Assembly: GCA_045647355.1 (NCBI GenBank)
Contig: JAZRMF010000001.1
Span: forward strand, 81,714-145,713
Reading direction: 5' to 3'
From: Candidatus Enterousia sp.
Lineage (GTDB): Bacteria > Pseudomonadota > Alphaproteobacteria > Rs-D84
DNA: 64,000 nt
Below, in pieces: positions 7,301 through 61,384 of this stretch. Made by a program: the position numbers and the translations under genes. Numbering within the stretch: the stretch's first letter is position 1; every line of letters begins with the position of its first letter. Below the pieces are notes generated by a model. It had not been told where the DNA came from. It saw nothing but the letters and a program-made list of their open reading frames with translations, and did not search any database.

Positions 7301-7428
7301 TTAAATGGTTCACCCATTTTTGTCTTTTCTAGTGATTTATGAAACGTATCATCTTGCCGCCAAAAGTCCAACACTTCATGTTCCAATTCAGAAAAGTTTA
7401 CTTTCGGTTCTGTTTTTTTATATGCCAT
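4390..7428 (-). CDS. ileS: Isoleucine--tRNA ligase (IleRS type 2-like)
   Basis: FYDGPPFANGLPHWGH, GWDCHGLP, WTTTPWTLP, GDGTGIVHIAP and KFSKS; type-2-like C-terminus without zinc finger; start at MAYKK after GGAG. Confidence 0.97.
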   Translation of the reverse strand: MAYKKTEPKVNFSELEHEVLDFWRQDDTFHKSLEKTKMGEPFNFYDGPPFANGLPHWGHLGVSCIKDMVSRYKTMCGRYVKRELGWDCHGLPAETAVEQQEGRTAKKIVEQDGIDVFCDLCRTSVTTYCNGWLRFVERVGRWVDGGDNYGYRTMDKNYMESVIWGLKQLYDKGLLYKDFKVNPYDWKLGTVLSNSEASSEYKDVVDDTVTVWFELENGERAIAWTTTPWTLPANSALAVNPKMKYVKMRHDDGHVYILAESRVSAYEKIFATSEKVGECTGAELVGLHYTPIFPYYTDLAKEGHGLYTIIPADYVSDGDGTGIVHIAPAYGEDDYWAAKAIDPKFPVILNVDDFGNFDSTVKDWPGMNIFDANPKIIDWLRSNGILVKKDQHKHSYPYGPRSKEKLIYRATDAWYVDVPKIRDRLVEITKTQTTWTSAGNRFLSWIENAREWGITRNRYWGVPLPIWERNGEYKVFGSIAEMEEFFGTKIDDLHRPTLDKLEKDGWKRIPDVLDCWFESGSMPFAHLHYPFENKDVFEKTFPADYIIEADEQTRGWFYGLMVMAVALFDKPAFRVVSANGLICDEQKRKFSKSLHNYVEPSEQLETYSADAIRLFIQGSTFMKAETVGVDKEGKVFGDTIKTILTPLWNAYHFFTLYANAGNITAEMNNTSTNLLDKYIMAELSRLMKITTDSLNQYKPDIAIKEFIRFLDILNNWYIRRNRDRFWDEDNTAFNTLYYVLVNLAKIMAPFAPFISEYIYKNLTGKESVHLEDWPVADSVDMNIVTDMRRVQAIVSAGKQLREQYKLRNRLPLAKLTVAGGHAMPDYTNIIRDELNVKSVEWVDSANKVADSFIYLVTPKIGSRLGGALREIIPAVKRGDYELDGDKLVVGSYTLNADEFENRLTIKDGVTGIALPDNTAVVILDTELNSELIAEGLANDALRFIQDTRKEIGLDVSDRINLTYTADLALSGAIEQHRKRIMADALIREMAPGDAEYFKDIEGYNFGISIQKA

Positions 7429-7456
7429 TTTTATGTACTCCATATGCTGTTATTAT

Positions 7457-7480
7457 AAAAAAACGGGCGCCTATGCGCCC
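7457..7480 (-). terminator. Attenuator terminator upstream of ileS
   Basis: Minus strand GGGCGC-ATAG-GCGCCC-G-TTTTTTT between the leader ORF and the ileS SD. Confidence 0.8.
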
Positions 7481-7507
7481 CAGCCAACGCCAAAGCGCAG
7501 CACTGGT

Positions 7508-7540
7508 TTACCTTATAATAATTATTTCTTTTGTTTTCAT
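7508..7540 (-). CDS. Putative ileS leader peptide MKTKEIIIIR
   Basis: ATG AAA ACA AAA GAA ATA ATT ATT ATA AGG TAA: four tandem Ile codons directly upstream of the terminator and ileS. Confidence 0.75.
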   Translation of the reverse strand: MKTKEIIIIR

Positions 7541-7548
7541 CGCAGGTT

Positions 7549-7577
7549 AGTGTAATATATTAAAATTGGAATTTCCA
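7549..7577 (-). promoter_or_regulatory. Putative promoter for the ileS leader (near-leaderless)
   Basis: TGGAAA-17 nt-TACACT ending 8 nt before the leader ATG. Confidence 0.5.
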
Positions 7578-7604
7578 GTATTTTATGCAAAAAATACAAG
7601 TTGC

Positions 7605-7632
7605 TTGACAAGTTTACTTTTTGTGCTATATT
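7605..7632 (+). promoter_or_regulatory. Sigma70-like promoter
   Basis: TTGACA-16 nt-TATATT with extended -10 TG. Confidence 0.65.
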
Positions 7633-7664
7633 TTGAGTACAAGAAGTTTATTGAGGAGACGAAC

Positions 7665-8273
7665 ATGATAAAAGACGAAAAGTTAAAAAGAAGACTGTAT
7701 ATGTTGTTGTGTGATATTGCGAAACTGGGTGACAAGACAGCGGCATTTTTTATTGCGGTATTTAAGGCACCAAACGATGTTCAAGAAGACATGACAGACC
7801 CTGAAAAATTCAAGGAATCTGTATTCAACAGATATAGAATTAATTATAAACGCTATATCCTGGAACAGAATCAACACCGCCTGCAAAAACTTGTTGGTGG
7901 AAAAGTAGAGCGCGTCACAAAAAGTGCGGATTCTGATATGTTGCAAGAGATTGCCGATAAAGGCCTGACAGATGTTATCTTGTCAGAAAACAGCCCTTTC
8001 CGTATTTCCGATGTTAGCTATTTCGAAGCAACCGAACATCAATTGCCATTACCTATGGTATGTAAATATGGTGATTATAGAATCAAATTTGCATCTGCGG
8101 GTATGGGATGGTGCGGCAGCACACAGCGCGAAAACGGATTCATATCCAAGCGCAACGCAAAAGGTCATTATGAACCTGTTGCCACAATTTCACCGGAATT
8201 ATCCGACTATTTGGCAAAAATTGTCGATGAAAAGGCGAAGATGCAAAAGGCCGAAAAGGAACAAGCACGTTAA
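7665..8273 (+). CDS. Hypothetical protein
   Basis: ORF with GAGGAG SD before MIKDEK; promoter upstream and terminator downstream. Confidence 0.8.
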   Translation: MIKDEKLKRRLYMLLCDIAKLGDKTAAFFIAVFKAPNDVQEDMTDPEKFKESVFNRYRINYKRYILEQNQHRLQKLVGGKVERVTKSADSDMLQEIADKGLTDVILSENSPFRISDVSYFEATEHQLPLPMVCKYGDYRIKFASAGMGWCGSTQRENGFISKRNAKGHYEPVATISPELSDYLAKIVDEKAKMQKAEKEQAR

Positions 8274-8294
8274 TATAAAAAAATTAAACAAAAC

Positions 8295-8316
8295 ACCGCC
8301 CAAATGGGCGGTTTTT
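8295..8316. terminator. Terminator between the hypothetical gene and tRNA-Thr
   Basis: ACCGCCC-AAAT-GGGCGGT-TTTT. Confidence 0.8.
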
Positions 8317-8321
8317 ATTTG

Positions 8322-8397
8322 TGGTGCCGGTGATAGGACTTGAACCTACGACCCCCTCATTACGAATGAGATGCTCTACCAGCTGAGCTACACCGGC
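8322..8397 (-). tRNA. tRNA-Thr(CGT)
   Basis: GCCGGTGTAGCTCAGCTGGTAGAGC...TTCGTAA loop...GGTTCAAGTCC...ACCA cloverleaf with encoded CCA. Confidence 0.95.
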
Positions 8398-8443
8398 GAT
8401 GCGCAAGTCACTTTACATAACATCCTTTCCTTTTGCAAGTATT

Positions 8444-8890
8444 TTATTTGCCGTTATACGGGGTCAATTGTGACATAAAAAATCTATTTAAATCGCTAAG
8501 GCGTTCCATGTTATAATCTTGGGGCATTTCAGAATCCCATTGTTCTTTTGCAGCAATTGATTCAAAAATCTGCATATTCCTTTGATTTTTGCGGTCTGTG
8601 ATTGCCCTGGCCTTTATACTTGTATATGAATTCACCAAAAACGAATTTTTTTCGGGATATCGCGAATCATATCTATGATTGTCTGTAACCAAAGTCCACT
8701 TGTCTGGATTGTGAACCGTGATTTGTTCAGACGTTGGAACAGATTTAATGAACGTATATCTTAACACCCATTGATTACAATAATATCGTGTTATCATGGC
8801 AAGGTCGTTATCTGGTGTTATACCATATTCAAACTCTACGTTCACTTTGTATTGGTTCATTGCCATATTAAATTCGTCAACCCACGTCAT
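8444..8890 (-). CDS. Hypothetical protein (148 aa)
   Basis: ATGA overlap with the mnmG stop, consistent with translational coupling. Confidence 0.75.
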   Translation of the reverse strand: MTWVDEFNMAMNQYKVNVEFEYGITPDNDLAMITRYYCNQWVLRYTFIKSVPTSEQITVHNPDKWTLVTDNHRYDSRYPEKNSFLVNSYTSIKARAITDRKNQRNMQIFESIAAKEQWDSEMPQDYNMERLSDLNRFFMSQLTPYNGK

Positions 8891-10545
8891 TGTTTATCCT
8901 TTCCTTGATTTATTTTCCGCAACACAACCATTATCCCCGCCGGGGTCATTCCCGGTATTCTTTGCAATTCTGCAAGTGTCGTTGGACGCGCACGATTTAA
9001 TTTTTCACACAATTCCCGTGTCAGCCCCGAAAGACCACTATAATCAAAATCCGCCGGTATTTTTATTGTTCTGTCGCGGCGGTATGATTCTATTTCCCGT
9101 TCATTTCGCATAATATATCCGGCATAAAATCTGTCGTTTTCGGCAATTTTACCGGCTTTTTCGTGCATTTTTTTCAAAAAGGCACTTTCAGATATCAAAC
9201 CCAAATCAACCCCAATTGGCCCCATACGTGATATTGCATTATCCGCACGCAGGTTTAAACGATATTCCGAACGCGAAGTAAACATACGATATGGTTCATC
9301 AACCCCAAGTGTTGTTATATCATCTATCATAACACCTATCATTGAATTGGTTCTATCGATTTCCAACCCGGGCAATGAAAGAGCAAATGCGGCGGCGTTT
9401 GCGCCGGCAACAATTCCCTGGGCGGCGGCTTCTTCGTATCCAGACGTACCGTTTATTTGTCCTGCAAAGAATAACCCGGGGGCATCGCGTGACATTAAAT
9501 GTGAATCCAGCACGCGTGCATCAATCGCATCATATTCAATTGCGTATCCATACCGGGCAATCCGCGCATTTTGCAGCCCCGGAATAGTGCGAATCCACCT
9601 GTCTTGGATATCGCGGCCAAAACTGGTTGAAATACCATTTGGGTAAATTAAATCACTGTGTAATCCTTCGGGTTCTAAAAACACATGATGCGACAGGTGT
9701 TCTGGGAACCGCATTACTTTATCTTCCAAAGACGGGCAATAACGTGGCCCAATTCCCGAAATATCACCATTATACATTGGCGCATTTTTAATATTATCAC
9801 GAATTATTTTGTGAGTTTCTTCGTTGGTGTGTGTGATAAAACAGACCGCAACATTATTGTCTGTATCACACCCATCAGAAAACCAATCATGTGGGTTATC
9901 GGGGCGTTGTTCTTCACACACAGAAAAATCAATAGAATCACGATAAATACGTGCTGGTGTCCCAGTTTTAAGGCGAATTATATCAAATCCAAAATCGCGC
10001 AATGCACCAGAAATTACCGTATCGGGCGATTGATACGTACCGTCGTCCATGATTCGCCCTGATGGTGTTTTTTCCGCACCCATTGTGACCAAACCACCCA
10101 AAAATGTTCCAGTTGTAAAAACAATAGACTTTGCCATGTATGCGTTATTTATTACTTTATTCGCCAAATCAACAGATTCGACCGTTTCAAATAACACGGT
10201 CAAGTTTTCGTATTCGGCCAAAATTTTGATAATCGCATTATGATATAATTCACGGTCAATTTGTGCGCGCAACGCTTGGGTCGCCGGTCCATGTGATGCA
10301 TTCAATGTTCTAAAATGTATTCCGGCCATATCGGCACCGCGTGGCATTACACTACCAAGTGCATCTATTTCCGCAACCATTTGCGATTTTCCCGGCCCGC
10401 CAATAGAAGGATTGCACGACATCGCACCTAAATCTGATTCGCGCATTGTTAACAGTAATGTCGTGGCACCACGACGCGCAGATGCCGCGGCTGCCTCGAC
10501 ACCCGCATGTCCACCACCAATAACAATTACATCAAACCTTTGCAT
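8887..10545 (-). CDS. mnmG: tRNA uridine-5-carboxymethylaminomethyl(34) synthesis enzyme MnmG
   Basis: VIGGGHAGVEAA, MSCNPSIGG, RLKTGTPAR, GPRYCPSLEDK and AGQINGTSGYEEAAAQG. Confidence 0.97.
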   Translation of the reverse strand: MQRFDVIVIGGGHAGVEAAAASARRGATTLLLTMRESDLGAMSCNPSIGGPGKSQMVAEIDALGSVMPRGADMAGIHFRTLNASHGPATQALRAQIDRELYHNAIIKILAEYENLTVLFETVESVDLANKVINNAYMAKSIVFTTGTFLGGLVTMGAEKTPSGRIMDDGTYQSPDTVISGALRDFGFDIIRLKTGTPARIYRDSIDFSVCEEQRPDNPHDWFSDGCDTDNNVAVCFITHTNEETHKIIRDNIKNAPMYNGDISGIGPRYCPSLEDKVMRFPEHLSHHVFLEPEGLHSDLIYPNGISTSFGRDIQDRWIRTIPGLQNARIARYGYAIEYDAIDARVLDSHLMSRDAPGLFFAGQINGTSGYEEAAAQGIVAGANAAAFALSLPGLEIDRTNSMIGVMIDDITTLGVDEPYRMFTSRSEYRLNLRADNAISRMGPIGVDLGLISESAFLKKMHEKAGKIAENDRFYAGYIMRNEREIESYRRDRTIKIPADFDYSGLSGLTRELCEKLNRARPTTLAELQRIPGMTPAGIMVVLRKINQGKDKQ

Positions 10546-11103
10546 TTATTTATCATTTATTTTTGAATACACCGCAAAATCTTCGCGTTGATTTAAATAT
10601 GGATTAAATTCACAACTGCGTAATGTACCTTCGTAATCAAATCCGCATTTTTCCGCAACACGACGTGATGCGACATTTGCCGTATTTGCACGTATCATAA
10701 CACGTTTAAAGCCCATATCTAAAAATGCCTGTGTGGTTGTCTTAACGGCCTCGGTCATGAAACCTTGGGACGCATAGTCCATATTTACCCATGCACCAAT
10801 CTCGCAACTTTCGGCGTCCCAATCTATATTGAACATAGAACATGCACCGATAAACGCACCATTTGATTTTATGTACATACCATATGTCGCCTTGGTTTTA
10901 TTTTTCCAACCTTTTTCCACACCACGCAGAAAATCAAATTCTGATTCTGCATTTGGGGCGCCTGCAAGTTTCGGTATATATTTATACGAATCACGATGAC
11001 GTTTGATAATTTCAAACAATTCGTTTGCAAAATCGAACGTCGCAACCAATGGTTTCAGCAACAAACGTTCACTTTGTAATTCTTTGAATTCCTGTGGCGC
11101 CAT
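10546..11103 (-). CDS. GNAT N-acetyltransferase, RimJ/RimL family
   Basis: ERLLLKP, CEIGAWV...QGFMTEAV, NVASRRVAEKCGFDYEG. Confidence 0.9.
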   Translation of the reverse strand: MAPQEFKELQSERLLLKPLVATFDFANELFEIIKRHRDSYKYIPKLAGAPNAESEFDFLRGVEKGWKNKTKATYGMYIKSNGAFIGACSMFNIDWDAESCEIGAWVNMDYASQGFMTEAVKTTTQAFLDMGFKRVMIRANTANVASRRVAEKCGFDYEGTLRSCEFNPYLNQREDFAVYSKINDK

Positions 11104-11832
11104 TTAAAACCTCCCCAAACCACCGTTAATGTGCAGTGTTTGTCCGTTGATATACGATGCTTCGTCAGATGCCAAGAACACACATGCGTTTGCAATATCT
11201 TCGGGTTCACCAAAACGACCCGCCGGTATTTGTGCAAGGTAATTTTTCTTTAATTCTTCTGGTAAAACATCTGTCATTGGTGTTTTGATAAAGCCTGGCG
11301 CAATTGCGTTTGCGGTAATTCCGCGTGATGCCACTTCGGCCGCAATAGATTTAGTCATACCGATCATACCACCTTTGGATGCGGCATAGTTTGCCTGGCC
11401 TGGTCCGCCAATAACCCCGATAATAGACGCCATATTTATAATGCGCCCGAAACGCTGTTTCATCATTGGCATAATCGCCGCGCGGCACATTTTAAAGCAT
11501 GAACGTAAATTAGTATTTAAAACATTATCAAACTGTTCATCGGTCATACGCATTAGTAATGTATCTGCAGTGATACCAGCATTGTTAACCAACACATCTA
11601 ATCTGCCACATTTTTCAATAGCCGCCGCAACCAGTTTTGCCGCACCATCATCAGATGCCAAATCACACGGAATTTTTACAAAACCATCATCAAATTCTGC
11701 GTCCATTTTTTGCGTGTTACGACCAGACACAATCACCGTTGCACCAGATTCCTTCATCTTGCGCGCAATGGCACCACCGATGCCACCGGTCGCCCCAGTA
11801 ATTAATACAACTTTATTTGTTAAATCAAACAT
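11104..11832 (-). CDS. fabG: 3-oxoacyl-ACP reductase
   Basis: TGATGGIG, NNAG, YAASK and IAPGFI SDR motifs; near fabD; start trimmed to MFDLTNK. Confidence 0.95.
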   Translation of the reverse strand: MFDLTNKVVLITGATGGIGGAIARKMKESGATVIVSGRNTQKMDAEFDDGFVKIPCDLASDDGAAKLVAAAIEKCGRLDVLVNNAGITADTLLMRMTDEQFDNVLNTNLRSCFKMCRAAIMPMMKQRFGRIINMASIIGVIGGPGQANYAASKGGMIGMTKSIAAEVASRGITANAIAPGFIKTPMTDVLPEELKKNYLAQIPAGRFGEPEDIANACVFLASDEASYINGQTLHINGGLGRF

Positions 11833-11848
11833 TTTATCCCCCGTGTTT

Positions 11849-12097
11849 TTAAGCATATTGTCTTAATTCTTGCATTTGACCCATCGCCAAATTTTGTTGC
11901 GACATGGATTTTGAAAAGAATAAACGCAAACCGTAATCTAATGTTGTCGTTGGCGTTACAATTAATTTGAACCAATTATTATAAACCAAAGTATAATTTT
12001 CATTGTTCAATTTTGCCAACTTTATAACTTCTGTGATGGCATCACCTATATACGTACCGATATCATATTTTTTAATATTATCCACCTTACTAGCCAT
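11849..12097 (-). CDS. Small hypothetical protein (82 aa) between fabD and fabG
   Basis: Fills the gap with AGAGG SD and 2-nt spacing from the fabD stop. Confidence 0.7.
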   Translation of the reverse strand: MASKVDNIKKYDIGTYIGDAITEVIKLAKLNNENYTLVYNNWFKLIVTPTTTLDYGLRLFFSKSMSQQNLAMGQMQELRQYA

Positions 12098-12099
12098 TT

Positions 12100-12975
12100 T
12101 TATACCTCTAATTTTTTACCTTCCATTTCTGGACAGATTCTTGGGGTTAACCCTGTTAAAACCGAACCTGGGCCAACCTCGATTGTTTCAGTAATTCCCA
12201 TATCATGCATTGCCAAAACACTTTCGCGCCAGCGTACACCATGTGTAATTTGATAAACCAGTGCAGAACGGATTTCATCTGGGTCACTAATAGGTGTGCA
12301 TGTTTTATTCGAAATTAATTGTGCCGCCGGGATTTTTATTTCTGTGTTTGCAAGTGCCGCACGCATTTCTTCTGCGGCAGGTGCCTGAATCCGACAATGA
12401 ACAGGTACAGACAATGCCAAAGGCATGGCGCGACGCGCACCAGCAGATTTGGTGTCTTCCAATGTTTTTTCAACAATATCTTTTGCACCCGATATTACAA
12501 CCTGGCCTGGGGAATTATCATTTGCCAAATCACAGTCATTTTTTGCACAGATTTCACGTACCGTATCTATATCTAATCCTAAAATCACGGCCGTCAAACC
12601 ATGACCCACCGGTACCGCACGTTGCATCGCATCGCCCCGCAAGCGTAATAATTTTGCGGTATCTGCGACAGATAATGCACCCGCCGCACACAGCGCCGTA
12701 TATTCACCCAAAGAATGTCCCGCCACATATTCGGTAAGTGGCACCCCCGATGCGCGTAACATCGCAATAGACGTTGCCATAATTGCAGGCTGAACATTTG
12801 TTGTTAATGTTAAATCTTCCATTGGGCCATTAAAAATAATGTCTGACAATTTCTGATTTAATGCATCATCAACCTCGTCAAAGACGGCACGTGCCGCCGC
12901 ATTATTTTTATACAGTTCATAACCCATACCAACACTTTGGGAACCTTGACCTGGGAATACAAGTATAGATGACAT
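12100..12975 (-). CDS. fabD: Malonyl CoA-ACP transacylase
   Basis: VFPGQGSQ, QPAI, GHSLGEY and ANDNSPGQVVISG; true start MSSILVF (the ORF-track N-terminal extension is spurious). Confidence 0.96.
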   Translation of the reverse strand: MSSILVFPGQGSQSVGMGYELYKNNAAARAVFDEVDDALNQKLSDIIFNGPMEDLTLTTNVQPAIMATSIAMLRASGVPLTEYVAGHSLGEYTALCAAGALSVADTAKLLRLRGDAMQRAVPVGHGLTAVILGLDIDTVREICAKNDCDLANDNSPGQVVISGAKDIVEKTLEDTKSAGARRAMPLALSVPVHCRIQAPAAEEMRAALANTEIKIPAAQLISNKTCTPISDPDEIRSALVYQITHGVRWRESVLAMHDMGITETIEVGPGSVLTGLTPRICPEMEGKKLEV

Positions 12976-13003
12976 ATTTGCCCCTTTGTTATGTACAGGT
13001 GGA

Positions 13004-13543
13004 TTATACTTTTCGAATACTAAATTCGCAACCACAATAATTTTGACGATAAAAGTCTGATTCTCGGTTGATTTTTTGGCGCAAGGCTTCGTCCCATTTG
13101 ACCGGAATATATGGCATGTCGCCCGGGGCAGATTCGCCCGCCGCGTCAACCTGGTGTTGGTCTTTGTGTTTTGACACCCCAAGTACAGATGCCACCGCAT
13201 TATATCCATTTTCGCGTGCAAATCTCTTGGCGTATTCAAAACGATATGCGAAACAAACACTGCATCGCCCGCCACGTTCTGGCTCATTTTCCAATCCACG
13301 AACCGCCGCACGCCATGCGTCATGGTCATATTCACCGATTTTGTATTTTACACCCAATTTTTCACAATATTTTACTTGTTCGTTCATACGTTTTGTGTAT
13401 TCGCTTTCGGGGAAAATATTTGGATTGAAAAATAAAACAATAAAATCGTCCACACCGGGGATTTCGCCGTGTGCCAATTGCTCAATCGCACCCGCGCTGC
13501 ATGGCGCACAACAAGATACCAAAACCAGTTTCATTTTTTCCAT
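13004..13543 (-). CDS. queH: Epoxyqueuosine reductase QueH (DUF208)
   Basis: SCCAPCS, FFNPNI, RCSVCF and YRQNYCGCEFS motifs. Confidence 0.9.
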   Translation of the reverse strand: MEKMKLVLVSCCAPCSAGAIEQLAHGEIPGVDDFIVLFFNPNIFPESEYTKRMNEQVKYCEKLGVKYKIGEYDHDAWRAAVRGLENEPERGGRCSVCFAYRFEYAKRFARENGYNAVASVLGVSKHKDQHQVDAAGESAPGDMPYIPVKWDEALRQKINRESDFYRQNYCGCEFSIRKV

Positions 13544-13553
13544 AGTTTTATCT

Positions 13554-14297
13554 TTAACGTCCTGCATATTTTTCGAACCGTTTAATTGCAGGATTTGCAA
13601 TTTCTACCAATCCTGGATACAAACTGTGTTCTCGAAACCTTTGACGTTCCGCGTTTGAATTCTGAAAATATTTATTGGCATCGTCATTATTTTTGAATAG
13701 TGAAATCTGTACACACGGACGGATAAAATAAAGATCTGGAATGTCACCAACAGATTTTATTAAACGCAGTTCATAAATGTAAATATATGAACTGTTGCTG
13801 GCGAAACTTGCACGACTGTTAAATATAGGTGCACAGCCATCAACAACAACCAAATCTTTGCTGTCTTTTTTGATAACCATTGGATTATACTCTTCAAACG
13901 CATTTTTTATAATGGTGCATGGCTTTCCAAATTTGAAATTACTTTTCAATCTTTTTGATAATGTTGTCGTTTCTGGATTATATGCGGCATTAAACAGTGC
14001 AATTTCTTTCTGGTATGCATCCGCAATCACGGCATTTTCGGTAACATCAGATGCCAAATATTCTTCATAATCTTTTTGTTTACTTAATAAATTATACCCA
14101 TCAGTACAGCGAAAACTATCAGCAAATTGGTATTTTTCTATACCAATATTGCGTCCGTGCCATACTTGTAACACATCGCCAGGCATATAAAAAAACAGTG
14201 CATATACAGCGTTTTCTTTATCATTGCGTTGTAACCCCAGCAAATGTTTATATGCCGTTGATACAGAATATTCTGGAATCACTTTTATGTCTTGCAT
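13554..14297 (-). CDS. Hypothetical protein (247 aa)
   Basis: Long ORF with GGGGGA SD in a co-directional orphan array. Confidence 0.8.
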   Translation of the reverse strand: MQDIKVIPEYSVSTAYKHLLGLQRNDKENAVYALFFYMPGDVLQVWHGRNIGIEKYQFADSFRCTDGYNLLSKQKDYEEYLASDVTENAVIADAYQKEIALFNAAYNPETTTLSKRLKSNFKFGKPCTIIKNAFEEYNPMVIKKDSKDLVVVDGCAPIFNSRASFASNSSYIYIYELRLIKSVGDIPDLYFIRPCVQISLFKNNDDANKYFQNSNAERQRFREHSLYPGLVEIANPAIKRFEKYAGR

Positions 14298-14308
14298 TTA
14301 TTCCCCCA

Positions 14309-14899
14309 TTAACGTGTTTTGGTAAAGAATCTTTTTAAACTAATTGGTACCCTACACACATGACCTTTTTCTGTTATTCGCCTAAGTGTTTTTCTATCGA
14401 CAAAAACTCCGTTGGCGCGGTCTAAATAATTCCAATCTACAAACCGATTAACCTTTGGCCGGCGGGTCTTTGGATCATATGTTCCCGCCAATGTTTGTGT
14501 ACGAACATGAAACACTATCGGTTTTTGTTCAACCGTGGCAACATCAAAATCTAATGGAGAAGCATATTGCTCTCTAACAAATTTATCGACATCATTTGGA
14601 TAAACCAATTTGTCACCAACATAGAGTTTATACGTATCAACAACTTCTTCTTTTATAATTGGGTGATTTTCATAACTTGCGGTTTGGCCAAGTTTATGTC
14701 TTGTATTTGTACTTTCGTGCCTATTTTCATCATATGTTTTAACAACGCACTTTAATTCTATTGTATACGGCATCGAAGAAGAATATGAATTGGTGTAATT
14801 TACCAAATCTTCAAAAGAATTAATTTGTTTTTCATCACCCCCACCCAATGGTGTGCACGGGCCAGTATTAGTTAAATAAAATTCAACAAGTTTCGCCAT
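14309..14899 (-). CDS. Hypothetical protein (196 aa)
   Basis: Long ORF with AAAGGA SD. Confidence 0.8.
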   Translation of the reverse strand: MAKLVEFYLTNTGPCTPLGGGDEKQINSFEDLVNYTNSYSSSMPYTIELKCVVKTYDENRHESTNTRHKLGQTASYENHPIIKEEVVDTYKLYVGDKLVYPNDVDKFVREQYASPLDFDVATVEQKPIVFHVRTQTLAGTYDPKTRRPKVNRFVDWNYLDRANGVFVDRKTLRRITEKGHVCRVPISLKRFFTKTR

Positions 14900-14910
14900 T
14901 TCATATCCTT

Positions 14911-15540
14911 TTATTTACAATATACTTTTTCACGTTTTTGTTTTAACAAATATGTTACATCCGGACACATTTTACCAACAAGACTTTCATCAGATGCCCA
15001 TAAATAATGCCCATTCGTATCAAGGACCCTATCATTTTGTGTAATATTTCGCACGGTCGCAAAATACCTATTATATTTTTCAATAAACACCGGGGTATTA
15101 TTATCCAGTGCAGATTTATCAGGGTTATTTACAATAATTTCTTTGAAATAATGCGGTACACTTAACGCATCACAAATGTCCCCGGGATATATTAATTTGC
15201 CATTTGGAATAAGAATAAAATCTACACACCCACCGTTAAAATTATGTGATTGATAATATTCTTTGTCGGCTTCGTCTTTAATACATACCTGTCGCACCAA
15301 TTTAATATCGTATGTTTTTTTATCCAGATAATATGGATTCCGAACAGTTTGGGCAAAACGTTTACAGAAACTGCGAAAATCGCGTTCCATTTCACGGGTG
15401 CGTCTCATTTTGCCATCTATTTTCACGCCTATTTGATCTCTTTTCGTATGCGAATTCAATTCCAAATGACCTGCTTTTGTATTCCACAAGTAAAAGACGT
15501 CACCATAAATATCAAAAAACACTTCTGATGTCATATACAT
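14911..15540 (-). CDS. Hypothetical protein (209 aa)
   Basis: Long ORF with AAAGGA SD. Confidence 0.8.
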   Translation of the reverse strand: MYMTSEVFFDIYGDVFYLWNTKAGHLELNSHTKRDQIGVKIDGKMRRTREMERDFRSFCKRFAQTVRNPYYLDKKTYDIKLVRQVCIKDEADKEYYQSHNFNGGCVDFILIPNGKLIYPGDICDALSVPHYFKEIIVNNPDKSALDNNTPVFIEKYNRYFATVRNITQNDRVLDTNGHYLWASDESLVGKMCPDVTYLLKQKREKVYCK

Positions 15541-15579
15541 TTTTTATCCTTTTGCGTTTATACTCTCTCGATTGATTAC

Positions 15580-15900
15580 TTAACGACCGTTTTTTTTGCG
15601 CGGATAATTTAACCAATCAGATAAACCGCGATTATATTCATCCCAAACTTCTATTTTTCGTAACCTGGTTTTATTTTGTTCTACAAAACCGCCAATCTTG
15701 GCATGAAAGTTTTTCGTTGTTGTTTCTCGTGTTATCATTACAGGTAATACCCATTCTTCCGCGCAACGATAAAGCTCGGCTTTTAAATAATCTTGCATTT
15801 GCTCTATTTCTGAACTCTTAAACACCGCAACGCGTTTCTTATTCGAAATCTTTGTTTTTGATATAATGGTGTATTCGGTGCTTTTTGCATTCTGTGACAT
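15580..15900 (-). CDS. Hypothetical protein (106 aa), probable paralog of the next ORF
   Basis: AAAGGA SD; N-terminus MSQNAKSTEYTI...F..SEIEQM resembles 15918-16253. Confidence 0.75.
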   Translation of the reverse strand: MSQNAKSTEYTIISKTKISNKKRVAVFKSSEIEQMQDYLKAELYRCAEEWVLPVMITRETTTKNFHAKIGGFVEQNKTRLRKIEVWDEYNRGLSDWLNYPRKKNGR

Positions 15901-15917
15901 AGTTTAATCCTTTTGCG

Positions 15918-16253
15918 TTAATGTTGATACCCAATAAAATCAAAGAATCCTGCATTTGGAGATTTGGGTTCACCAACACGGCAATACCGTTCTACACGAT
16001 AAACCTTTTTACGTGGTTTGTGTGTTTCGGGTGCTTTTTGAGTTTTTAACCACGGAAAGCCATTTTTGGACAAATGATAGTTCATTGTTATTGTTGTTTT
16101 CACTACATCCATATAAATTTCTGATTCATTTTGTTCTTGCACATACTTTATCAGCTCTTGAATTTCTAATTCACTAAATGTCCTCTGGGGGTTCACAGAA
16201 TGGCCCATATATGATGTTACTGTGTATGTAGTATATTTGATATTTTGCGACAT
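15918..16253 (-). CDS. Hypothetical protein (111 aa)
   Basis: AAAGGA SD; N-terminus MSQNIKYTTYTV...FSELEIQEL. Confidence 0.75.
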   Translation of the reverse strand: MSQNIKYTTYTVTSYMGHSVNPQRTFSELEIQELIKYVQEQNESEIYMDVVKTTITMNYHLSKNGFPWLKTQKAPETHKPRKKVYRVERYCRVGEPKSPNAGFFDFIGYQH

Positions 16254-16297
16254 AGTTTTTATCCTTTTACAAAACTACATCCTCTCTCCGTATTGTT

Positions 16298-17917
16298 TTA
16301 TTCTTCTGGTAATTCAATACGTGTGAACAGGTTTTCTGGGACAGTAAATTTTTCACCGTTTGCAATTCTGTGTTCGTACATTGTTGGCCAAGATAAATCA
16401 TGGTTGCCATCAAATATACCGCGAATCTTGTCCGCCGCATCCGGTATAAATGGTGCAGATATACGCGCGAACAAATCAATTAATTGAAAACACTCGTTCA
16501 ACACCGCCGCCGCGGTTGCCGTATCACCATTTTTAACCAATGCCCATGGTTCTTTTTCGGTCATATATTCATTTGCGATACCGTAAATATCGCGCAGGGC
16601 TATAATAGATTTACGGAATTCACATGCGTCCAATGCACCCGTTAATTCCGCTAATTTTTCATTTACACGATGCGCCAATGTTTCATCCATCGTGGCACCG
16701 GTCGGAACCGTGTCACCAAAGTTTTTCTGTGACAGTTTGCATACACGTGACACAAAATTGCCCAACAATCCGTTCAAATCTTTATTAACAATTTCGGCAA
16801 AACGCGTCATTGTAAAGTCTGTATCATCTGTTTCCGGTGCAGATGCAAGCAGGGCATAACGCCAGCAATCAGATGGTGCAATATTTAATGCCTCGTCTAA
16901 AAATATTCCGTTACCGGTTGATTTGGAAATCTTGGCACCATTAAAGTTCAAGAAATTTTGACCCTTTAATACATCAACTGTTTTCCAATTGTCATCCATT
17001 GCCAATTCGTAGGCTGGGAAAAACACAGAATGGAAAGATACATTATCCTTGGCCATGAATTGTGTATAGTGGCAATCTGGGTTTTTCCACCAGGACGCCC
17101 AATCTGGATTTGCAATTTGCGAAATAGAAACATATCCCCATGGTGCATCAAACCACACATAGAAAACTTTGTCTTCGTAACCCGGTTTGTTTACCGGAAT
17201 ACCCCATTTCAAATCACGCGTAATTGGATTATCATGCAATCCTTCGTCCAACCATTTATTTGCAATTTTAATTGCGGTTTTTGGCCAACCAACACGCGAA
17301 TTTATCCATGCGCGCAGTTTATCTTGCATTTTACTTAATTTGAAATACAGATGTTTTGTTTCGCGCATTTCAACCGGGGATGATGGGTCAATAGAACTGT
17401 GTGGATTTATCAATTCATCTGGATCCAGTGACGCACCGCATTTTTCACATTCGTTTCCGTATGCTTTTTCATACCCACACTTTGGACATGTGCCAATAAC
17501 ATAACGGTCGGCCAAGAATTTCTTTTCATTTACAGAATAGGGCTGTTTAGAGGCTTTTTCTTCTATCATGCCCAATGAATCTAAACGATTAAACAATTCA
17601 TGAATCAGTTTTTCATGTTGGGGGGTATGTGTGCGCCCGTATAAATCAAAAGACAATTTGAAATCACGCACCGCGTCCAGGTGTTTTGCACGATATTTAT
17701 CAACATAATCTTCCACCGACATATTCTCGCGTGCCGCGCCGATTTCGGATGTTGTTCCATGTTCATCAGACCCGCCAATATACAAAACATCACGACCCAT
17801 TGCACGACAGAAACGGGCGTATACATCAGACGGCAATAAACAGCCAATTAAATGCCCAATATGCAAATTATTATTTACGTATGGTAATGCCGAAGTAATA
17901 AGATATTTTTTGCTCAT
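16298..17917 (-). CDS. metG: Methionine--tRNA ligase (short form without C-terminal tRNA-binding domain)
   Basis: ITSALPYVN..HIGH, SDEHG, CPKC/CEKC knuckles, YVWFDAP and KISKS. Confidence 0.97.
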   Translation of the reverse strand: MSKKYLITSALPYVNNNLHIGHLIGCLLPSDVYARFCRAMGRDVLYIGGSDEHGTTSEIGAARENMSVEDYVDKYRAKHLDAVRDFKLSFDLYGRTHTPQHEKLIHELFNRLDSLGMIEEKASKQPYSVNEKKFLADRYVIGTCPKCGYEKAYGNECEKCGASLDPDELINPHSSIDPSSPVEMRETKHLYFKLSKMQDKLRAWINSRVGWPKTAIKIANKWLDEGLHDNPITRDLKWGIPVNKPGYEDKVFYVWFDAPWGYVSISQIANPDWASWWKNPDCHYTQFMAKDNVSFHSVFFPAYELAMDDNWKTVDVLKGQNFLNFNGAKISKSTGNGIFLDEALNIAPSDCWRYALLASAPETDDTDFTMTRFAEIVNKDLNGLLGNFVSRVCKLSQKNFGDTVPTGATMDETLAHRVNEKLAELTGALDACEFRKSIIALRDIYGIANEYMTEKEPWALVKNGDTATAAAVLNECFQLIDLFARISAPFIPDAADKIRGIFDGNHDLSWPTMYEHRIANGEKFTVPENLFTRIELPEE

Positions 17918-17935
17918 TTACCCATCCTTTTTATG

Positions 17936-17962
17936 AAAAAGGGACGCCAAACGGGGCGTCCC
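17936..17962 (-). terminator. Attenuator terminator upstream of metG
   Basis: Minus strand GGGACGCC-CCGTTT-GGCGTCCC-TTTTT (8-bp stem), about 20 nt before the metG start. Confidence 0.85.
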
Positions 17963-17992
17963 AAAGAATCCCGTTCAAACTTGTTCTAAAAA

Positions 17993-18010
17993 TTAGTTTT
18001 GCATTCGCAT
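17993..18010 (-). CDS. Putative metG leader peptide MRMQN
   Basis: ATG CGA ATG CAA AAC TAA preceded by AGAGGA; two Met codons; followed by antiterminator/terminator sequences. Confidence 0.55.
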   Translation of the reverse strand: MRMQN

Positions 18011-18036
18011 TTTTTATCTTTTGTCCTCTGAAAATC

Positions 18037-18113
18037 TGGTGGGTGATATTGGACTCGAACCAACGACCTTTACGATGTCAACGTAACGCTCTAACCAACT
18101 GAGCTAATCACCC
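18037..18113 (-). tRNA. tRNA-Val(GAC)
   Basis: GGGTGATTAGCTCAGTTGGTTAGAGCG...TTGACAT loop...GGTTCGAGTCC...ACCA. Confidence 0.96.
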
Positions 18114-18125
18114 AAGGCAGTCGCC

Positions 18126-18153
18126 ATTATAACAAAGAATTTGGCGATTGCAA
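18126..18153 (-). promoter_or_regulatory. Promoter for tRNA-Val (and probably metG)
   Basis: TTGCAA-16 nt-TATAAT with extended -10 TG. Confidence 0.7.
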
Positions 18154-18157
18154 GTTT

Positions 18158-18266
18158 TTAGTGGTTAGTGTTAGTGGATAGTTGTTAGTGCGGGTATCTG
18201 GAATATTTTCACAATCACGAAATTGTTCCAGATATTACTAACCACTTACACTAGCCACTAACCACT
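18158..18266. repeat. About 110-bp imperfect palindrome with TTAGTG(G) repeat arms (MITE/REP-like)
   Basis: AGTGGTTAGTG (18160-70) and CACTAACCACT (18256-66) terminal IR; inner TATCTGGAA/TTCCAGATA IR. Confidence 0.75.
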
Positions 18267-18271
18267 CTCTG

Positions 18272-20596
18272 CTACTTATCACGGACATGGGCTGGGCATT
18301 TCTTTTCCACCGCCGCGATTATGTCGCCGTGCAATTTTGCCAAATCGGCCTCTGACATTTTTTCGGTTGGGATTATTGTCACACTGAATGCCACAGATTT
18401 ATTGCCGTCCGACATTTCAAATGAATCAAACACCGTAATATCAGACACCATGTTTGATGCCCCACGTGCGGCAGACACCAAATTGGCCGCCGGGAAATCG
18501 TTTGGCACAATAAACGCGAAATCGCGCGATATCGGTTGAAAATCTGTTACCGGAATCTTTTGATATTTTGGATTCTTGGGCAGGTTTTCAATATCTTCGA
18601 CCAATCCAATAAACACGTTTGTTTTTATGTGCATTTGTTTTGCAACAGACGGATGCAACTGTCCAAATTCGGCCAGAACTTTCTTGCCTTGGACGATTCT
18701 GCCATATCTGTATGGATGCGCCCAAAGTGGTACATTATCTGTATCAATAGTATATTTCTGGGCACCAAGTAATGACACTAAATCTGATTTAACATCGAAC
18801 AAATCAACCGGTCTATTGCGTTTCAGCCAATGCTTTGGCGATGTCACACCACACCGGATAATGCATATTGATGTATGTTGCGCCCCCGGGGTATCACCAT
18901 CAAATACTGTTCCCAATTCAAACATGTTGATATCAGAAAATCCACGTTTTTCATTATTGGCAACCGCAATCAACAGATTTCCAATCAAACTATTACGTGC
19001 CGTATCCAAATCAACAATAATTGGATTCGCAACACTGATTATTGGCTTGTCTGTCACCAACTTTTCAACTTTTGAATTACCAAAACCAAAAGAAATCGTT
19101 TCGTTCAAACCACGATTCGCCAATTTTTGTTTCAATTCTAAATCAAAATCTTTATGCGTCGTGCTTGTTATGTCCTTTGGCATTTCTTTAAGGCCGATTT
19201 TTTCGTACCCATACATACGCACCAATTCAGACACAATTGTTTCAGCTATCACAATATCTGTTCTTTGCGGGTTTGGTGTGATTACCCAATCGCCGTTCTT
19301 GTTTTCCTTTATTTCGAAATGCAGTTTCTGCAAAATTTCTTTTTGTATTTTGGCATCCAGTTTTATACCCGTTTTCTGTTCCATCAAAGACGGGTTATAC
19401 ACTACGGATTCCGGTGTATAGGACGCACGTCCCGCGACACCAACGTTTACAATTTCACCACCACATTCATCCATTATTATTTTTGCAGCCATCGCCAATG
19501 CCGCACCCGTTCCATCTGGGTTGATACCACGTTCATAACGATATGAAGAATCTGTGGATATGCCGTATCTTTTTGATGATTTACGAACAGTAACTGGGTT
19601 AAAGTATGCCGATTCAAGGATGATATTTTTTGTATCATCGCTTGTGCAACTGCGTTCACCACCAACGATACCGGCCAATGCCAACACACCTGCATCGTCA
19701 CATATAACCAAATCTTTATCACACAGTTCGTAATCCGTTCCGAATAAATCTGTAAATTTTTCACCATTGTTTGCCATACGAACGGTTATATCACCAACAA
19801 TTTTATCGGCATCAAAACAATGCATAGGTTGTGCCAAATCATAACAAACATAATTGGTTGTATCAATTGGCGCATTCTTTGGATTTATACCCGCAGAAAG
19901 CAATCTTGATTGCACGGTTTTATTTGATGGCGCATTTTTTATACCGCGTATTTCACAGAAACGATACGTTGGGCATGCCTCTGGGGCAAGCAGGTTAACC
20001 TTGCGTTCACCCTTGATTGGTTTTAATTCATCAATTTTATTTTCAATGTATGTACCGGCACCCGCCGCAGACAAATCTAATGAGATTCCGCGCAAAGATA
20101 AATAATCTGGACGGTTTGGTGTAATAGATGTTTCAAAAACCGCACCCGCCAATCCACGTAACGCAGATATTGGTTGCCCAATAACCTCGGCCTTGTCATC
20201 TAATTCGATAATGCCAGTGTGGTCATCGTTTATGCCTAATTCGCGACCACTGCACATCATGCCATCAGACACAACCCCACGCAGTTTTCCAGATTGAATT
20301 TCATGACCTTCGATTATGCATCCTGGGGTGGCCAGCGCAGATATCAAACCAACACGTACATTTGGCGCACCACATACAACCTGACGCAATTTTCCAGAAC
20401 CATCGTCAACCATTAACACGTGCATATGGTCACTGTTTTCGTGTGGTTTGCATTCAACAATTTTTGCCGCAATTGGTAACACAGGTTCAGATAAATCTTC
20501 AACCTCTAACCCGATTGCCGTCAATTTATCCGCGATTTCTTGTGGGGTTAATTTTGTATCCAAATATTGTTTTAACCATTCATAAGACCATTTCAT
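18272..20596 (-). CDS. pheT: Phenylalanine--tRNA ligase beta subunit
   Basis: MKWSYEWL, VVCGAPNV, ITPNRPDYLS, LESAYF, YRYERG and FDX-ACB C-terminus (ISRDFAF). Confidence 0.97.
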   Translation of the reverse strand: MKWSYEWLKQYLDTKLTPQEIADKLTAIGLEVEDLSEPVLPIAAKIVECKPHENSDHMHVLMVDDGSGKLRQVVCGAPNVRVGLISALATPGCIIEGHEIQSGKLRGVVSDGMMCSGRELGINDDHTGIIELDDKAEVIGQPISALRGLAGAVFETSITPNRPDYLSLRGISLDLSAAGAGTYIENKIDELKPIKGERKVNLLAPEACPTYRFCEIRGIKNAPSNKTVQSRLLSAGINPKNAPIDTTNYVCYDLAQPMHCFDADKIVGDITVRMANNGEKFTDLFGTDYELCDKDLVICDDAGVLALAGIVGGERSCTSDDTKNIILESAYFNPVTVRKSSKRYGISTDSSYRYERGINPDGTGAALAMAAKIIMDECGGEIVNVGVAGRASYTPESVVYNPSLMEQKTGIKLDAKIQKEILQKLHFEIKENKNGDWVITPNPQRTDIVIAETIVSELVRMYGYEKIGLKEMPKDITSTTHKDFDLELKQKLANRGLNETISFGFGNSKVEKLVTDKPIISVANPIIVDLDTARNSLIGNLLIAVANNEKRGFSDINMFELGTVFDGDTPGAQHTSICIIRCGVTSPKHWLKRNRPVDLFDVKSDLVSLLGAQKYTIDTDNVPLWAHPYRYGRIVQGKKVLAEFGQLHPSVAKQMHIKTNVFIGLVEDIENLPKNPKYQKIPVTDFQPISRDFAFIVPNDFPAANLVSAARGASNMVSDITVFDSFEMSDGNKSVAFSVTIIPTEKMSEADLAKLHGDIIAAVEKKCPAHVRDK

Positions 20597-20611
20597 TTTT
20601 TTACCCCTTTA

Positions 20612-21568
20612 TTAAAATCCACTGTTTTTTAACCAACGCACATCTGAATCAGTAAATGCACGTATATCGTTTAGACCATATTTAACCATCGCCAACCTGG
20701 CCCAACCAAACCCAAATGCAAAACCTTGATATTTATTCGGGTCAACATTGCAGTTTTTTAATACGTTTGGATGAACCATACCACCACATAATAATTCCAT
20801 CCATTTATCACCGAATTTCATATCTATTTCAATAGATGGTTCTGTAAAAGGAAAGTAAGATGGACGTATGCGCAGTTCTACATCATCTTTTTCAAAAAAC
20901 TTGGATGCAAATGTTCGCATAGTTGCCAACATATCAGACAGGTTTATGCCTTTTTCTACTGTATCAATATGCAACCCTTCGATTTGACCGAACATTGCAG
21001 AATGGGTCGCATCCAATTCACGACGATAACACTGGCCAACCGAGAACATTTTAATTGGCACACCATTTTTTTCCATCGCACGAATTTGAACCGCGGACGT
21101 TTGTGTACGCATAACATTGCCATTCGGCAAAAAGAACGTATCTTGCATATCACGCGCAGGATGATATACCGGCATATTTAACGCGGTAAAATTATGCCAA
21201 TCGTCTTCGATTTCCGGCCCGGTCATTAACGTGTACCCCAAAGATTCGAAAATATCTACGACTTCTTTGAAACTTTGTGTCAATGGATGCAACGTACCAC
21301 GATTTTCTGGTTCTGAATCCAATGTTACATCAATATATTCACCGGCCAATTTTTCGTTTAATACGGCATTTTCTATTTCTGTCTGTTTATCTTTGAACAA
21401 TTGACGCAGCTCCGTATTTTCGGCATTAATGGCCGCACGTTCATCGTTTGACAATGTAGCCATAGACTTTAATTTCTGGGTCATTGTACCGTTTTTGCCG
21501 AACGTTGCGGTGTACAATTCTTGTAATTCTTGTAACGATTTTATATTTTTAATTTTTTCTTGTAACAT
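20612..21568 (-). CDS. pheS: Phenylalanine--tRNA ligase alpha subunit
   Basis: HPARDMQDTF, MRTQTSAVQIR, F.QIEGL, YFPFTEPS and GFAFGFG. Confidence 0.97.
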   Translation of the reverse strand: MLQEKIKNIKSLQELQELYTATFGKNGTMTQKLKSMATLSNDERAAINAENTELRQLFKDKQTEIENAVLNEKLAGEYIDVTLDSEPENRGTLHPLTQSFKEVVDIFESLGYTLMTGPEIEDDWHNFTALNMPVYHPARDMQDTFFLPNGNVMRTQTSAVQIRAMEKNGVPIKMFSVGQCYRRELDATHSAMFGQIEGLHIDTVEKGINLSDMLATMRTFASKFFEKDDVELRIRPSYFPFTEPSIEIDMKFGDKWMELLCGGMVHPNVLKNCNVDPNKYQGFAFGFGWARLAMVKYGLNDIRAFTDSDVRWLKNSGF

Positions 21569-21584
21569 TGATTCAACCTTTTAA

Positions 21585-21617
21585 TAAATATGGGGCCAAC
21601 TTACGCGGCCCCATAAT
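21585..21617 (-). terminator. Strong hairpin between rplT and pheS
   Basis: Minus strand TATGGGGCC-GCGTAAGTT-GGCCCCATA-TTTATT. Confidence 0.6.
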
Positions 21618-21649
21618 CATAAACAAAAAACAACCTGCCGCCAAGGGTT

Positions 21650-22015
21650 TTATTTATCCCCTGCGATAAATCGTTTTGCGGTTTCAATAAGTGTGGCGAA
21701 ATTCTTGTCGCCGGCATATGCCATTTCGGCCAAAACCTTGCGATCCAATTCAACACCGGCCTTGCGCAGACCATTCATGAATTGGCTGTATGTGATGCCT
21801 GATGGACGAACCGCCGCATTGATACGAACAATCCACAAACTGCGGAAATCGCGTTTTTTGGTGCGACGATCACGATATGCATACTGACCCGCTTTTTCTG
21901 ATTTTTCACGTGCGGCACGATACGTGCTGCTGTGGCGTCCAAGGAAGCCCTTGGCACGTTCCAAAATTTTATTGTGTTTTTGACGAACTGTTGTTCCACG
22001 TTTTACTCTTGCCAT
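21650..22015 (-). CDS. rplT: 50S ribosomal protein L20
   Basis: MARVKRG...[22 protein letters not shown]. Confidence 0.98.
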
Positions 22016-61354: not shown

Positions 61355-61360
61355 AAAATT

Positions 61361-61384
61361 AAGTCGGGCGTGGGCCCGATTTTG
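61361..61384 (+). terminator. Terminator after tRNA-Met
   Basis: AAGTCGGGC-GTGG-GCCCGATTTT. Confidence 0.7.

Follow-up and report, generated by a model that had tools for sequence, protein, structure and literature searches.

The ileS, metG and pheST operons, which encode aminoacyl-tRNA synthetases, all lie on the minus strand of a 64,000-nt stretch of DNA from Candidatus Enterousia sp. (GenBank assembly GCA_045647355.1, contig JAZRMF010000001.1, positions 81,714 to 145,713; hereafter the window, G+C 38.8%). Each of them has a strong intrinsic terminator about 20-40 nt 5' of the start codon. The present analysis showed that the leaders of these operons are probably three different attenuators, each combining a terminator with a conserved competing helix, and not members of one leader-peptide regulon. 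Comparison among relatives gives good support to the ileS element as a classical ribosome-mediated leader-peptide attenuator that is lineage-wide. A previous, sequence-only reading of the window had described micro-open reading frames (micro-ORFs) with terminators at ileS and metG and a hairpin between rplT and pheS, and all of these features are present. It had also suggested that tRNA charging may be sensed through leader peptides across the synthetase genes of this organism, an idea that is only partly supported. It was supported at ileS (77/78 relatives) and failed at pheST, where no Phe ORF is conserved. At metG, a conserved, translated-looking micro-ORF with an invariant internal Met codon was confirmed, but it contains one such codon only, and a link between the ribosome and the switch could not be demonstrated. 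The positions of the features are listed in Table 1.

Relatives were collected with IleRS as the probe, which gave 80 loci from one genome per species at 70-94% IleRS identity. All 80 are from uncultured gut and rumen Alphaproteobacteria, and many are named Candidatus Enterousia. This genus is a member of the order Rs-D84, in which most genomes are below 1 Mb (PMC12306168); those of the type represented by the window are about 0.9 Mb. The ileS leader could be evaluated in 78 of the loci, as two loci end too early on the upstream side. When ten more large ORFs of the window were scanned with Pfam, no additional synthetase gene was revealed. The synthetase loci covered were ileS, metG and pheST, together with aspS in relatives, and about 16 further synthetase genes lie outside this sample. 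Individual loci of relatives are given below by L numbers.

The ileS leader ORF (ATG AAA ACA AAA GAA ATA ATT ATT ATA AGG TAA) contains four consecutive Ile codons. The ORF, the terminator and the competing antiterminator were kept in all evaluable relatives except L044, in which a tRNA takes the place of the leader. The consensus of the peptide is M-x4-I-I-I-I-[K/R/E/G/Q]-stop, with a length of 10 codons in 73/78 sequences, and the four residues following Met vary freely. Only ATA, ATT and ATC are used in the Ile run, and all third-position changes there are synonymous. The stop codon is TAA in 72 sequences, TAG in 4 and TGA in 2; all indels are whole codons, and L035 has five Ile codons. These results suggest that the ORF is translated and that only its Ile run is constrained. 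Runs of four Ile codons are not statistically rare in the AT-rich window (12 observed vs 5.8 +/- 3.3 expected), and the case for ileS therefore rests on conservation. ATA is decoded by a minor, lysidine-modified tRNA-Ile. Among 74 distinct sequences, the run opened with ATA in 70 and had ATT at its second and third positions in 71, so that it would test both isoacceptors. Tandem cognate codons in a short upstream ORF, by which attenuators of the trp/his/ilv/pheM type are recognized, were found at ileS.

The RNAalifold consensus of 76 distinct ileS leaders was the antiterminator helix TGCGCTTTGG:CTGGGGCGCA with 9 pairs. This helix takes up the 5' arm of the terminator, and the two structures are hence mutually exclusive. 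The downstream stretch GCGCTTTGGCGGTGGCTGGGGCGC-loop-GCGCCC-T-run was nearly invariant among relatives. In L066 and L074, GCGC was replaced by GCAC in the upstream arm, by GTGC in the shared arm and by GCAC in the 3' arm of the terminator, a three-way covariation that keeps both helices. The mean free energy of the terminator was -11.5 kcal/mol in the 76 relatives, and the best fold of the segment ending with the 5' arm of the terminator averaged about -14 kcal/mol. This fold was the antiterminator in roughly two thirds of the sequences and, in the rest, a rival local hairpin that begins 2 nt past the stop codon.

In the window, the leader ATG is located 8 nt after the predicted -10 hexamer. 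In 55 relatives, the leader start is preceded at 6-12 nt (mode 7 nt) by the end of a sigma-70-type promoter, for the most part TTGATT-17-TATAAA extended by TG; in 19 relatives, tRNA-Thr is directly upstream of the leader instead. No Shine-Dalgarno sequence was found 5' of the leader ORF. Because of this and the short distance between the -10 hexamer and ATG, the ORF appears to be leaderless or near-leaderless. When charged tRNA-Ile is scarce, a ribosome would stall on the Ile codons, the two antiterminator arms would pair and block the terminator, and RNA polymerase would read into ileS. With ample Ile-tRNA, the ribosome would get to the stop codon (7510..7508) and cover the sequence just downstream. 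The antiterminator would then be weakened, or the rival local hairpin would form after ribosome release, allowing the terminator to form and transcription to end at the T-run.

Two further observations were made around the ileS leader. The ileS ORF as listed starts at ATG 7443, and the start in relatives corresponds to ATG 7427 (MAYKKTE...). The latter, preceded by a Shine-Dalgarno sequence GGAG at 7440..7437, is probably the true start, which would place the annotated one 16 nt too far upstream. In addition, tRNA-Thr(CGT) is located upstream of the ileS leader in L029, L031, L034, L038, L048, L052-L054, L062, L064, L067, L073, L076, L079 and others. In the window, a divergent gene (~7665..8273, plus strand) with a strong promoter at 7605..7632 separates this tRNA from the leader.

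The E. coli pheST operon is regulated by ribosome-mediated attenuation through pheM, a leader peptide of 14 residues of which 5 are Phe. We analyzed 31 distinct rplT-pheS spacers, 28 of which were aligned for helix statistics. All 31 had the same order: the rplT stop, helix A (CTTTACGGC or CTTGGCGGC) 2-5 nt on, the T-rich TTTTGTTTTGTCAnAATA, the hairpin, a T-rich sequence and, about 20 nt further, pheS. In the window, the hairpin TATGGGGCC...GGCCCCATA lies between the rplT stop and the pheS ATG (21568) and ends 21 nt before the latter. Helix A is similar to the hairpin's 3' arm and varies together with it; in L097, for example, helix A is CTATACGGC, the 5' arm GCCGTATA and the 3' arm ATACGGCC. 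Over the 28 sequences, helix A was paired with the 5' arm of the hairpin in 89% of cells with 3 compensatory pairs, and for the hairpin itself (B:C) the share of paired cells was 84%, with compensatory changes at 4 pairs, against 25-57% in slid-strand controls. These results indicate that the hairpin and its competitor, conserved in 28-31 distinct sequences, are a genuine terminator/antiterminator pair. The neighborhood of pheT was not conserved: in a pheT-anchored metagenome scan, ileS or other genes follow pheT in most relatives, and the scan therefore captured the pheS leader but not that of metG.

A Phe-rich leader ORF at pheS was considered and rejected. Starts and stops are unconserved across the 31 distinct intergenic regions, and their ORFs contain at most 1-2 Phe codons. 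The candidate in the window, MFFVYDYGAA* with a TTG start (TTG TTT TTT GTT TAT GAT TAT GGG GCC GCG TAA), is lost even in close relatives: it runs on into pheS in L081 and has no start codon in L095. Other groups share only TTG TTT TGT, with scattered stops. If a ribosome stalled at these Phe codons, it would sit over helix A and thus favor termination, which is the wrong direction for homeostasis. The hairpin is instead predicted to terminate the rpmI-rplT transcript. A ribosome terminating at the rplT stop would mask helix A and let the terminator form, and a lagging ribosome would leave helix A free, so that the terminator is blocked and read-through occurs. The -10-like element of the spacer, in which the A..AT columns are invariant and preceded by TGT, is a possible internal pheST promoter. 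Transcripts may start from it within the 5' arm of the hairpin and would thereby escape termination.

At metG, the micro-ORF MRMQN* begins 26 nt after tRNA-Val. The promoter of this tRNA is the only evident one able to feed metG, which must therefore be transcribed through its terminator; the terminator ends 23 nt before the metG ATG. Six lineages (L114, L005, L127, L129/L136, L133 and L135), of which L114 is the same species, keep the micro-ORF with the consensus M(K)RM[QY][NIK]*, and these relatives span 81-90% MetRS identity. The micro-ORF always follows a tRNA-Val gene, and its variants include MKRMQI*, MRMYN* and MRMYK*. CGAATG, the stop and the frame are invariant, the flanking spacer has diverged, and some relatives have about 100 nt more. 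One insertion of a whole codon (AAA or AAG) and the synonymous pairs AAA/AAG, AAC/AAT, ATT/ATA and TAC/TAT were observed. With frame and stop fixed, these changes suggest that the micro-ORF is translated. CGA is a rare Arg codon in this genome (15/405 Arg codons) yet does not change in the micro-ORF.

RNAalifold predicted a 5-bp helix at metG between RCGGG (helix A) and CCCGU inside the terminator. We propose that metG is co-transcribed with tRNA-Val, that the micro-ORF may report Met-tRNA at its single internal AUG, and that the upstream AACGGG may pair with the loop and 5' arm of the terminator. The micro-ORF is likely regulatory, and sensing of Met by it is possible. No convincing route by which the ribosome would control the metG switch was found. 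Two candidates were rejected: an anti-antiterminator pairing of the micro-ORF with helix A, which was no better than shuffles, and a promoter within the micro-ORF, as the -10-like hexamers seen in some relatives are inconsistent and have no -35. The long forms of MetRS (~660 aa, with a C-terminal tRNA-binding domain) are mostly without the micro-ORF (L131:9700-10000 and L134:1790-1978), and L135 is a long form that retains it.

Clustering of all ORFs of >=300 aa in the relatives' loci yielded one more synthetase gene, aspS in L074, which was followed into three more lineages (L138, L139 and L142). Neither a terminator adjoining the start codon nor an Asp-rich ORF was found at aspS in these four relatives. 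Instead, aspS has a conserved leader of ~190 nt (L074:2608-2960, minus strand; L138:9790-10000; L139:9816-10000; L142:2820-3000). Within a helix resembling an antiterminator, the leader contains an exact match to the T-box core, AGGGTGGCACCGCG; the stretch AGTCAGGGTGGCACCGCGC-loop-GCGCCCCTG there corresponds to the T-box core consensus. Further features of the leader are a small hairpin with GAC and then A in its loop, and a downstream GGGTGCC able to pair with the core. The Rfam T-box model matched the antiterminator part only, with 25.7 bits (gathering threshold 93) and an E-value of 4.4e-4 in a 271-nt search; the core was exact and the antiterminator matched, and the full model did not match. 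The aspS leader of these relatives therefore looks T-box-like and not like a leader peptide. A survey in 2008 recorded T-boxes in 2/125 proteobacterial genomes, both deltaproteobacteria (PMC2494555). The tRNA upstream of the aspS leader is tRNA-Thr(GGT). Non-cognate tRNAs are often co-transcribed with synthetase leaders in this lineage, as tRNA-Thr(CGT)/ileS, tRNA-Val/metG and tRNA-Thr(GGT)/aspS.

We also searched the window for known RNA families. At gathering thresholds, Rfam detected four tRNAs and nothing else. Neither a T-box nor another Rfam family was found at the ileS, metG and pheST leaders by gathering thresholds, lenient scans or searches of small windows at E<=10. T-box leaders are recognized by the core AGGGUGGNACCGCG in an antiterminator and by a Stem I with a specifier, and the T-box model gave no match at the same three loci in these searches, in agreement with the earlier statement that no T-box or riboswitch consensus was seen there. 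For the Rfam amino-acid leader families (Leu_leader, Thr_leader, His_leader, Trp_leader and others), no score in the window reached the gathering threshold, and the sole Leu_leader matches were sub-threshold noise at an unrelated terminator (8268..8388). As Rfam contains no family for any of the three, they would escape standard annotation, which had been anticipated as well.

The position of the terminators was compared with that of other sites. In a consensus scan, the hairpins of all three leaders ranked among the strongest terminator-like sites on the minus strand. In a window-wide scan, those of ileS and metG were the only strong intergenic sites with a hairpin and T-run within ~25 nt of a start codon. 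The remaining strong intergenic sites were 50-70 nt from the start, a distance that leaves room for a promoter. The pheS hairpin missed the T-run rule of the window-wide scan and was detected in the consensus scan, ~21 nt before the pheS ATG. In 1.2 Mb of DNA from the lineage, the only gene classes that recurrently had a terminator no more than 45 nt from the start codon were ileS, pheS and metG; the scan also found an unrelated structured element before genes of small secreted proteins. In the same DNA, the ileS leader was the only recurrent class that combined a micro-ORF carrying an amino-acid run with a terminator. With a leader peptide at ileS and other designs at pheST and aspS, synthetase control in this lineage is heterogeneous. 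The compact regulon that had been proposed across the synthetase genes was contradicted by aspS, the single extra synthetase gene, which has a T-box-like leader and no cognate-codon micro-ORF.

Several points weigh against the reading of three different attenuators. Transcription start sites, translation of the micro-ORFs and termination at all loci are predictions from the DNA, as are the ribosome masking and the internal promoter at pheST, where helix A doubles as a -35-like hexamer. At ileS, the 5' arm of the antiterminator begins 8 nt past the stop codon, which makes masking by a terminating ribosome borderline, and about a third of the leaders are predicted to form the rival local hairpin, whose energy is similar. 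The exact three- or four-region logic at ileS is therefore unsettled. At metG, the 5-6 codons include only one internal Met codon (invariant in the six lineages), the A:B helix has only 5 bp with zero compensatory changes, and helix A is located 17 nt past the stop, beyond the ribosome whether stalled or terminating. The pairing of the metG ORF with helix A was not above shuffles, and the micro-ORF was absent from L134, which has tRNA-Val, a plain terminator and metG, and from L131, which has its own promoter and no terminator. Finally, the relatives' loci were gathered around the same synthetase genes, with one additional synthetase gene, aspS, among them.

The hairpins before metG and pheS might also be plain terminators of the tRNA-Val and rpmI-rplT units, with the synthetase genes expressed by constitutive leak-through or overlapping promoters and no amino-acid sensing; the metG micro-ORF would then be conserved at the RNA/DNA level or by shared ancestry. 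The arrangement in L134 fits this explanation, as do the non-significant pairing of the metG ORF with helix A, the invariance of its CGA even at the synonymous position, and the extended -10-like TGTCAnAAT at pheS with a predicted start inside the 5' arm of the hairpin. However, a second helix in competition with the terminator is conserved at both metG and pheS, which a plain terminator would not need, and helix A at pheS covaries with the 3' arm of the terminator. The whole-codon indel, synonymous changes and fixed in-frame stop of the metG ORF also argue against it, and the gap between the metG terminator and the start codon leaves no room for a promoter. We consider this explanation rather unlikely. 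Three different attenuators remain the preferred reading over a compact, uniform regulon as well, in which synthetase genes in general would be governed by ultrashort cognate-codon leader peptides. Such a regulon would account fully for ileS, for the conserved metG micro-ORF with its invariant internal AUG, and for the terminator immediately upstream of all three operons, with no other gene of the window having a strong one so close; leader coding sequences are also known at ileS and trpS of Caulobacter. It is nevertheless improbable, since pheST has no conserved Phe ORF, aspS in four relatives is T-box-like without an Asp-rich ORF, and metG offers no workable geometry from ribosome to switch. 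As for the ileS micro-ORF, it could encode a small hydrophobic peptide that has a separate function, or represent an AT-rich DNA/RNA signal, so that its Ile codons are no sensor. Leader peptides can act in trans, as is reported for peTrpL in Sinorhizobium, and the Ile run is not rare by composition. This is very improbable, as only the IIII core, start, stop and frame are conserved while the other residues vary freely, the changes within the run are all synonymous, and the ORF is always coupled to an antiterminator/terminator pair directly upstream of ileS.

Table 1. Features of the ileS, metG and pheST leaders and of adjoining genes (positions in the window)
Feature	Position	Strand	Remarks
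ileS (IleRS)	4390..7443	-	ORF as listed
ileS intrinsic terminator	7480..7465	-	GGGCGC-ATAG-GCGCCC, then G + T7 (7463..7457)
ileS antiterminator	7474..7499	-	5' arm TGCGCTTTGG (7499..7490), loop CGTTGG, 3' arm CTGGGGCGCA (7483..7474)
ileS leader ORF	7540..7508	-	MKTKEIIIIR* (10 codons + stop); from sequence and relatives
Four consecutive Ile codons	7514..7525	-	ATA ATT ATT ATA; putative regulatory codons
ileS leader promoter, predicted	7549..7578	-	-35 CTGGAA (7578..7573), 18-nt spacer, -10 TACACT (7554..7549)
tRNA-Thr(CGT)	8397..8322	-	
metG (MetRS, 539 aa)	16298..17917	-	
metG terminator	17962..17941	-	GGGACGCC-CCGTTT-GGCGTCCC, then T5 (17940..17936)
metG switch	17936..17975	-	helix A AACGGG (17975..17970) pairs with CCCGTT (17955..17950), inside terminator
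metG micro-ORF	18010..17993	-	MRMQN* (ATG CGA ATG CAA AAC TAA); from relatives
tRNA-Val(GAC) gene	18113..18037	-	gene together with its promoter spans 18037..18153
tRNA-Val promoter	18153..18126	-	TTGCAA-16-TATAAT
pheT	18272..20596	-	
pheS	20612..21568	-	
pheS terminator-like hairpin	21589..21615	-	TATGGGGCC-GCGTAAGT-TGGCCCCATA, then TTTATT
Conserved T-rich spacer	21616..21636	-	-10-like element TATGAT (21621..21616); relatives TGTCAnAAT
pheST helix A	21645..21637	-	CTTGGCGGC, 4 nt past rplT stop; from alignment
rplT stop codon	21652..21650	-	TAA
rplT	21650..22015	-	rpmI adjoins upstream

Other structured elements were observed in the window and its relatives. Between the pheT stop and the tRNA-Val promoter (18153-18266), there is a long imperfect inverted repeat of GTGGTTAGT-like units with 30-nt arms that are 83% complementary, plus an inner 16-nt pair; such units also adjoin terminators in relatives, for example in L001. 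A fourth tRNA-terminator-gene arrangement of the window is located at 61280-61432 on the plus strand, where tRNA-Met (61280..61354) is followed by a strong hairpin with a T-run (61361..61382) and, 50 nt past the hairpin, by a 313-aa ORF without a Pfam match. The terminator hairpin CACCGG-YANNTR-CCGGTG (window 2306-2325, plus strand) is stereotyped and was found at many unrelated gene ends, in 30/142 loci. A recurrent element of ~110 nt, with no copy in the window, was present at L103:2746-2860(+), L129:7902-8010(+), L028:6833-6930(+), L087:6011-6120(+) and at least 11 other loci. It reads GGTTGGAG ... GAATAtATTGAATAAgC ... GCAATT..AATTGTT ... CTCCAACC, followed by GCC...GGCGGTT and a T-run. 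The 3' arm of its long hairpin overlaps the 5' arm of the terminator, in the manner of a riboswitch or attenuator, and it has no Rfam match. The genes 3' of it encode small proteins starting with MKK...

Terminator-based synthetase control was varied here: besides a leader peptide, there are a tiny ORF, a switch coupled to the gene upstream, and an element resembling a T-box. What is observed at one or two genes should not be generalized to a regulon before the others are checked. The ileS leader provides a clean example, for which about 80 genomes of this uncultured gut lineage with reduced genomes supply the comparative evidence, and a new RNA family could be built from it. A broader idea, toward which we are more doubtful than inclined, is that Rs-D84/Enterousia, having lost most biosynthesis, may put most synthetase genes behind several compact cis-acting charge sensors. 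These would be the leaderless four-Ile leader at ileS, the 5-codon metG ORF sensing Met-tRNA by a single internal AUG after the rare CGA, an attenuator read out through termination of the ribosome at the rplT end, and a minimal alphaproteobacterial T-box. If true, compact sensors of several kinds would form a largely unannotated regulatory layer.

To our knowledge, E. coli pheST is the one textbook example of a synthetase gene under leader-peptide attenuation, and beyond it there are a few predictions. The ileS element is new as an example and is well supported on comparative grounds; its class, the synthetase leader-peptide attenuator, is already known. Our literature search returned no paper on the Enterousia element or on the mechanism of any alphaproteobacterial ileS leader. 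In Streptomyces, classical attenuators were reportedly predicted for trpS and leuS by the comparative genomics of Seliverstov et al. in 2005, and ileS of actinobacteria is said to have been assigned a T-box there, not a leader peptide. The ileS leader resembles these cases in that leader-peptide attenuation upstream of synthetase genes was predicted comparatively, in another phylum and for other genes. Like the trp attenuator and those of the ilvL/ivbL type in branched-chain amino-acid operons, it has regulatory codons in tandem, a T-run, and antiterminator and terminator helices that exclude each other. It differs from them in that its target is a synthetase and not a biosynthetic operon, the ORF has only 10 codons, a Shine-Dalgarno sequence is missing, the promoter abuts the start codon and no Rfam leader family matches.

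Ribosome profiling of Caulobacter crescentus identified leader coding sequences at ileS (CCNA_03934) and trpS (Schrader et al. 2014, PMC4117421). This alphaproteobacterium has a small translated ORF directly upstream of ileS, as is predicted for the window; the likeness to CCNA_03934 is one of annotation and position. CCNA_03934 served in that paper only as a control, and no mechanism was described (PMC4117421). In Sinorhizobium meliloti, another alphaproteobacterium, the leader ORF of the attenuator trpL (rnTrpL) is leaderless and begins where its transcript begins, at the 5' end (PMC10117765). The distance from -10 to ATG suggests the same geometry for the ileS leader, with another amino acid, another target gene and a transcription start site that is predicted. 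T-box leaders (RF00230) likewise control synthetases by an antiterminator/terminator choice that senses tRNA charging, and aspS of the relatives carries their core; unlike them, the window loci show no T-box similarity, and aspS matches the antiterminator part only. The closest parallel in gene order is E. coli pheM-pheST, as pheST of the window is also 3' of rpmI-rplT with termination/antitermination between rplT and pheS. In contrast to E. coli, a conserved Phe-rich ORF is missing at pheS of the window, and the competing helix there lies right next to the rplT stop. The ileS element uses the same principle as pheM, cognate codons in a short leader ORF. These results suggest that the pheM principle operates in the window at ileS and not at pheS.

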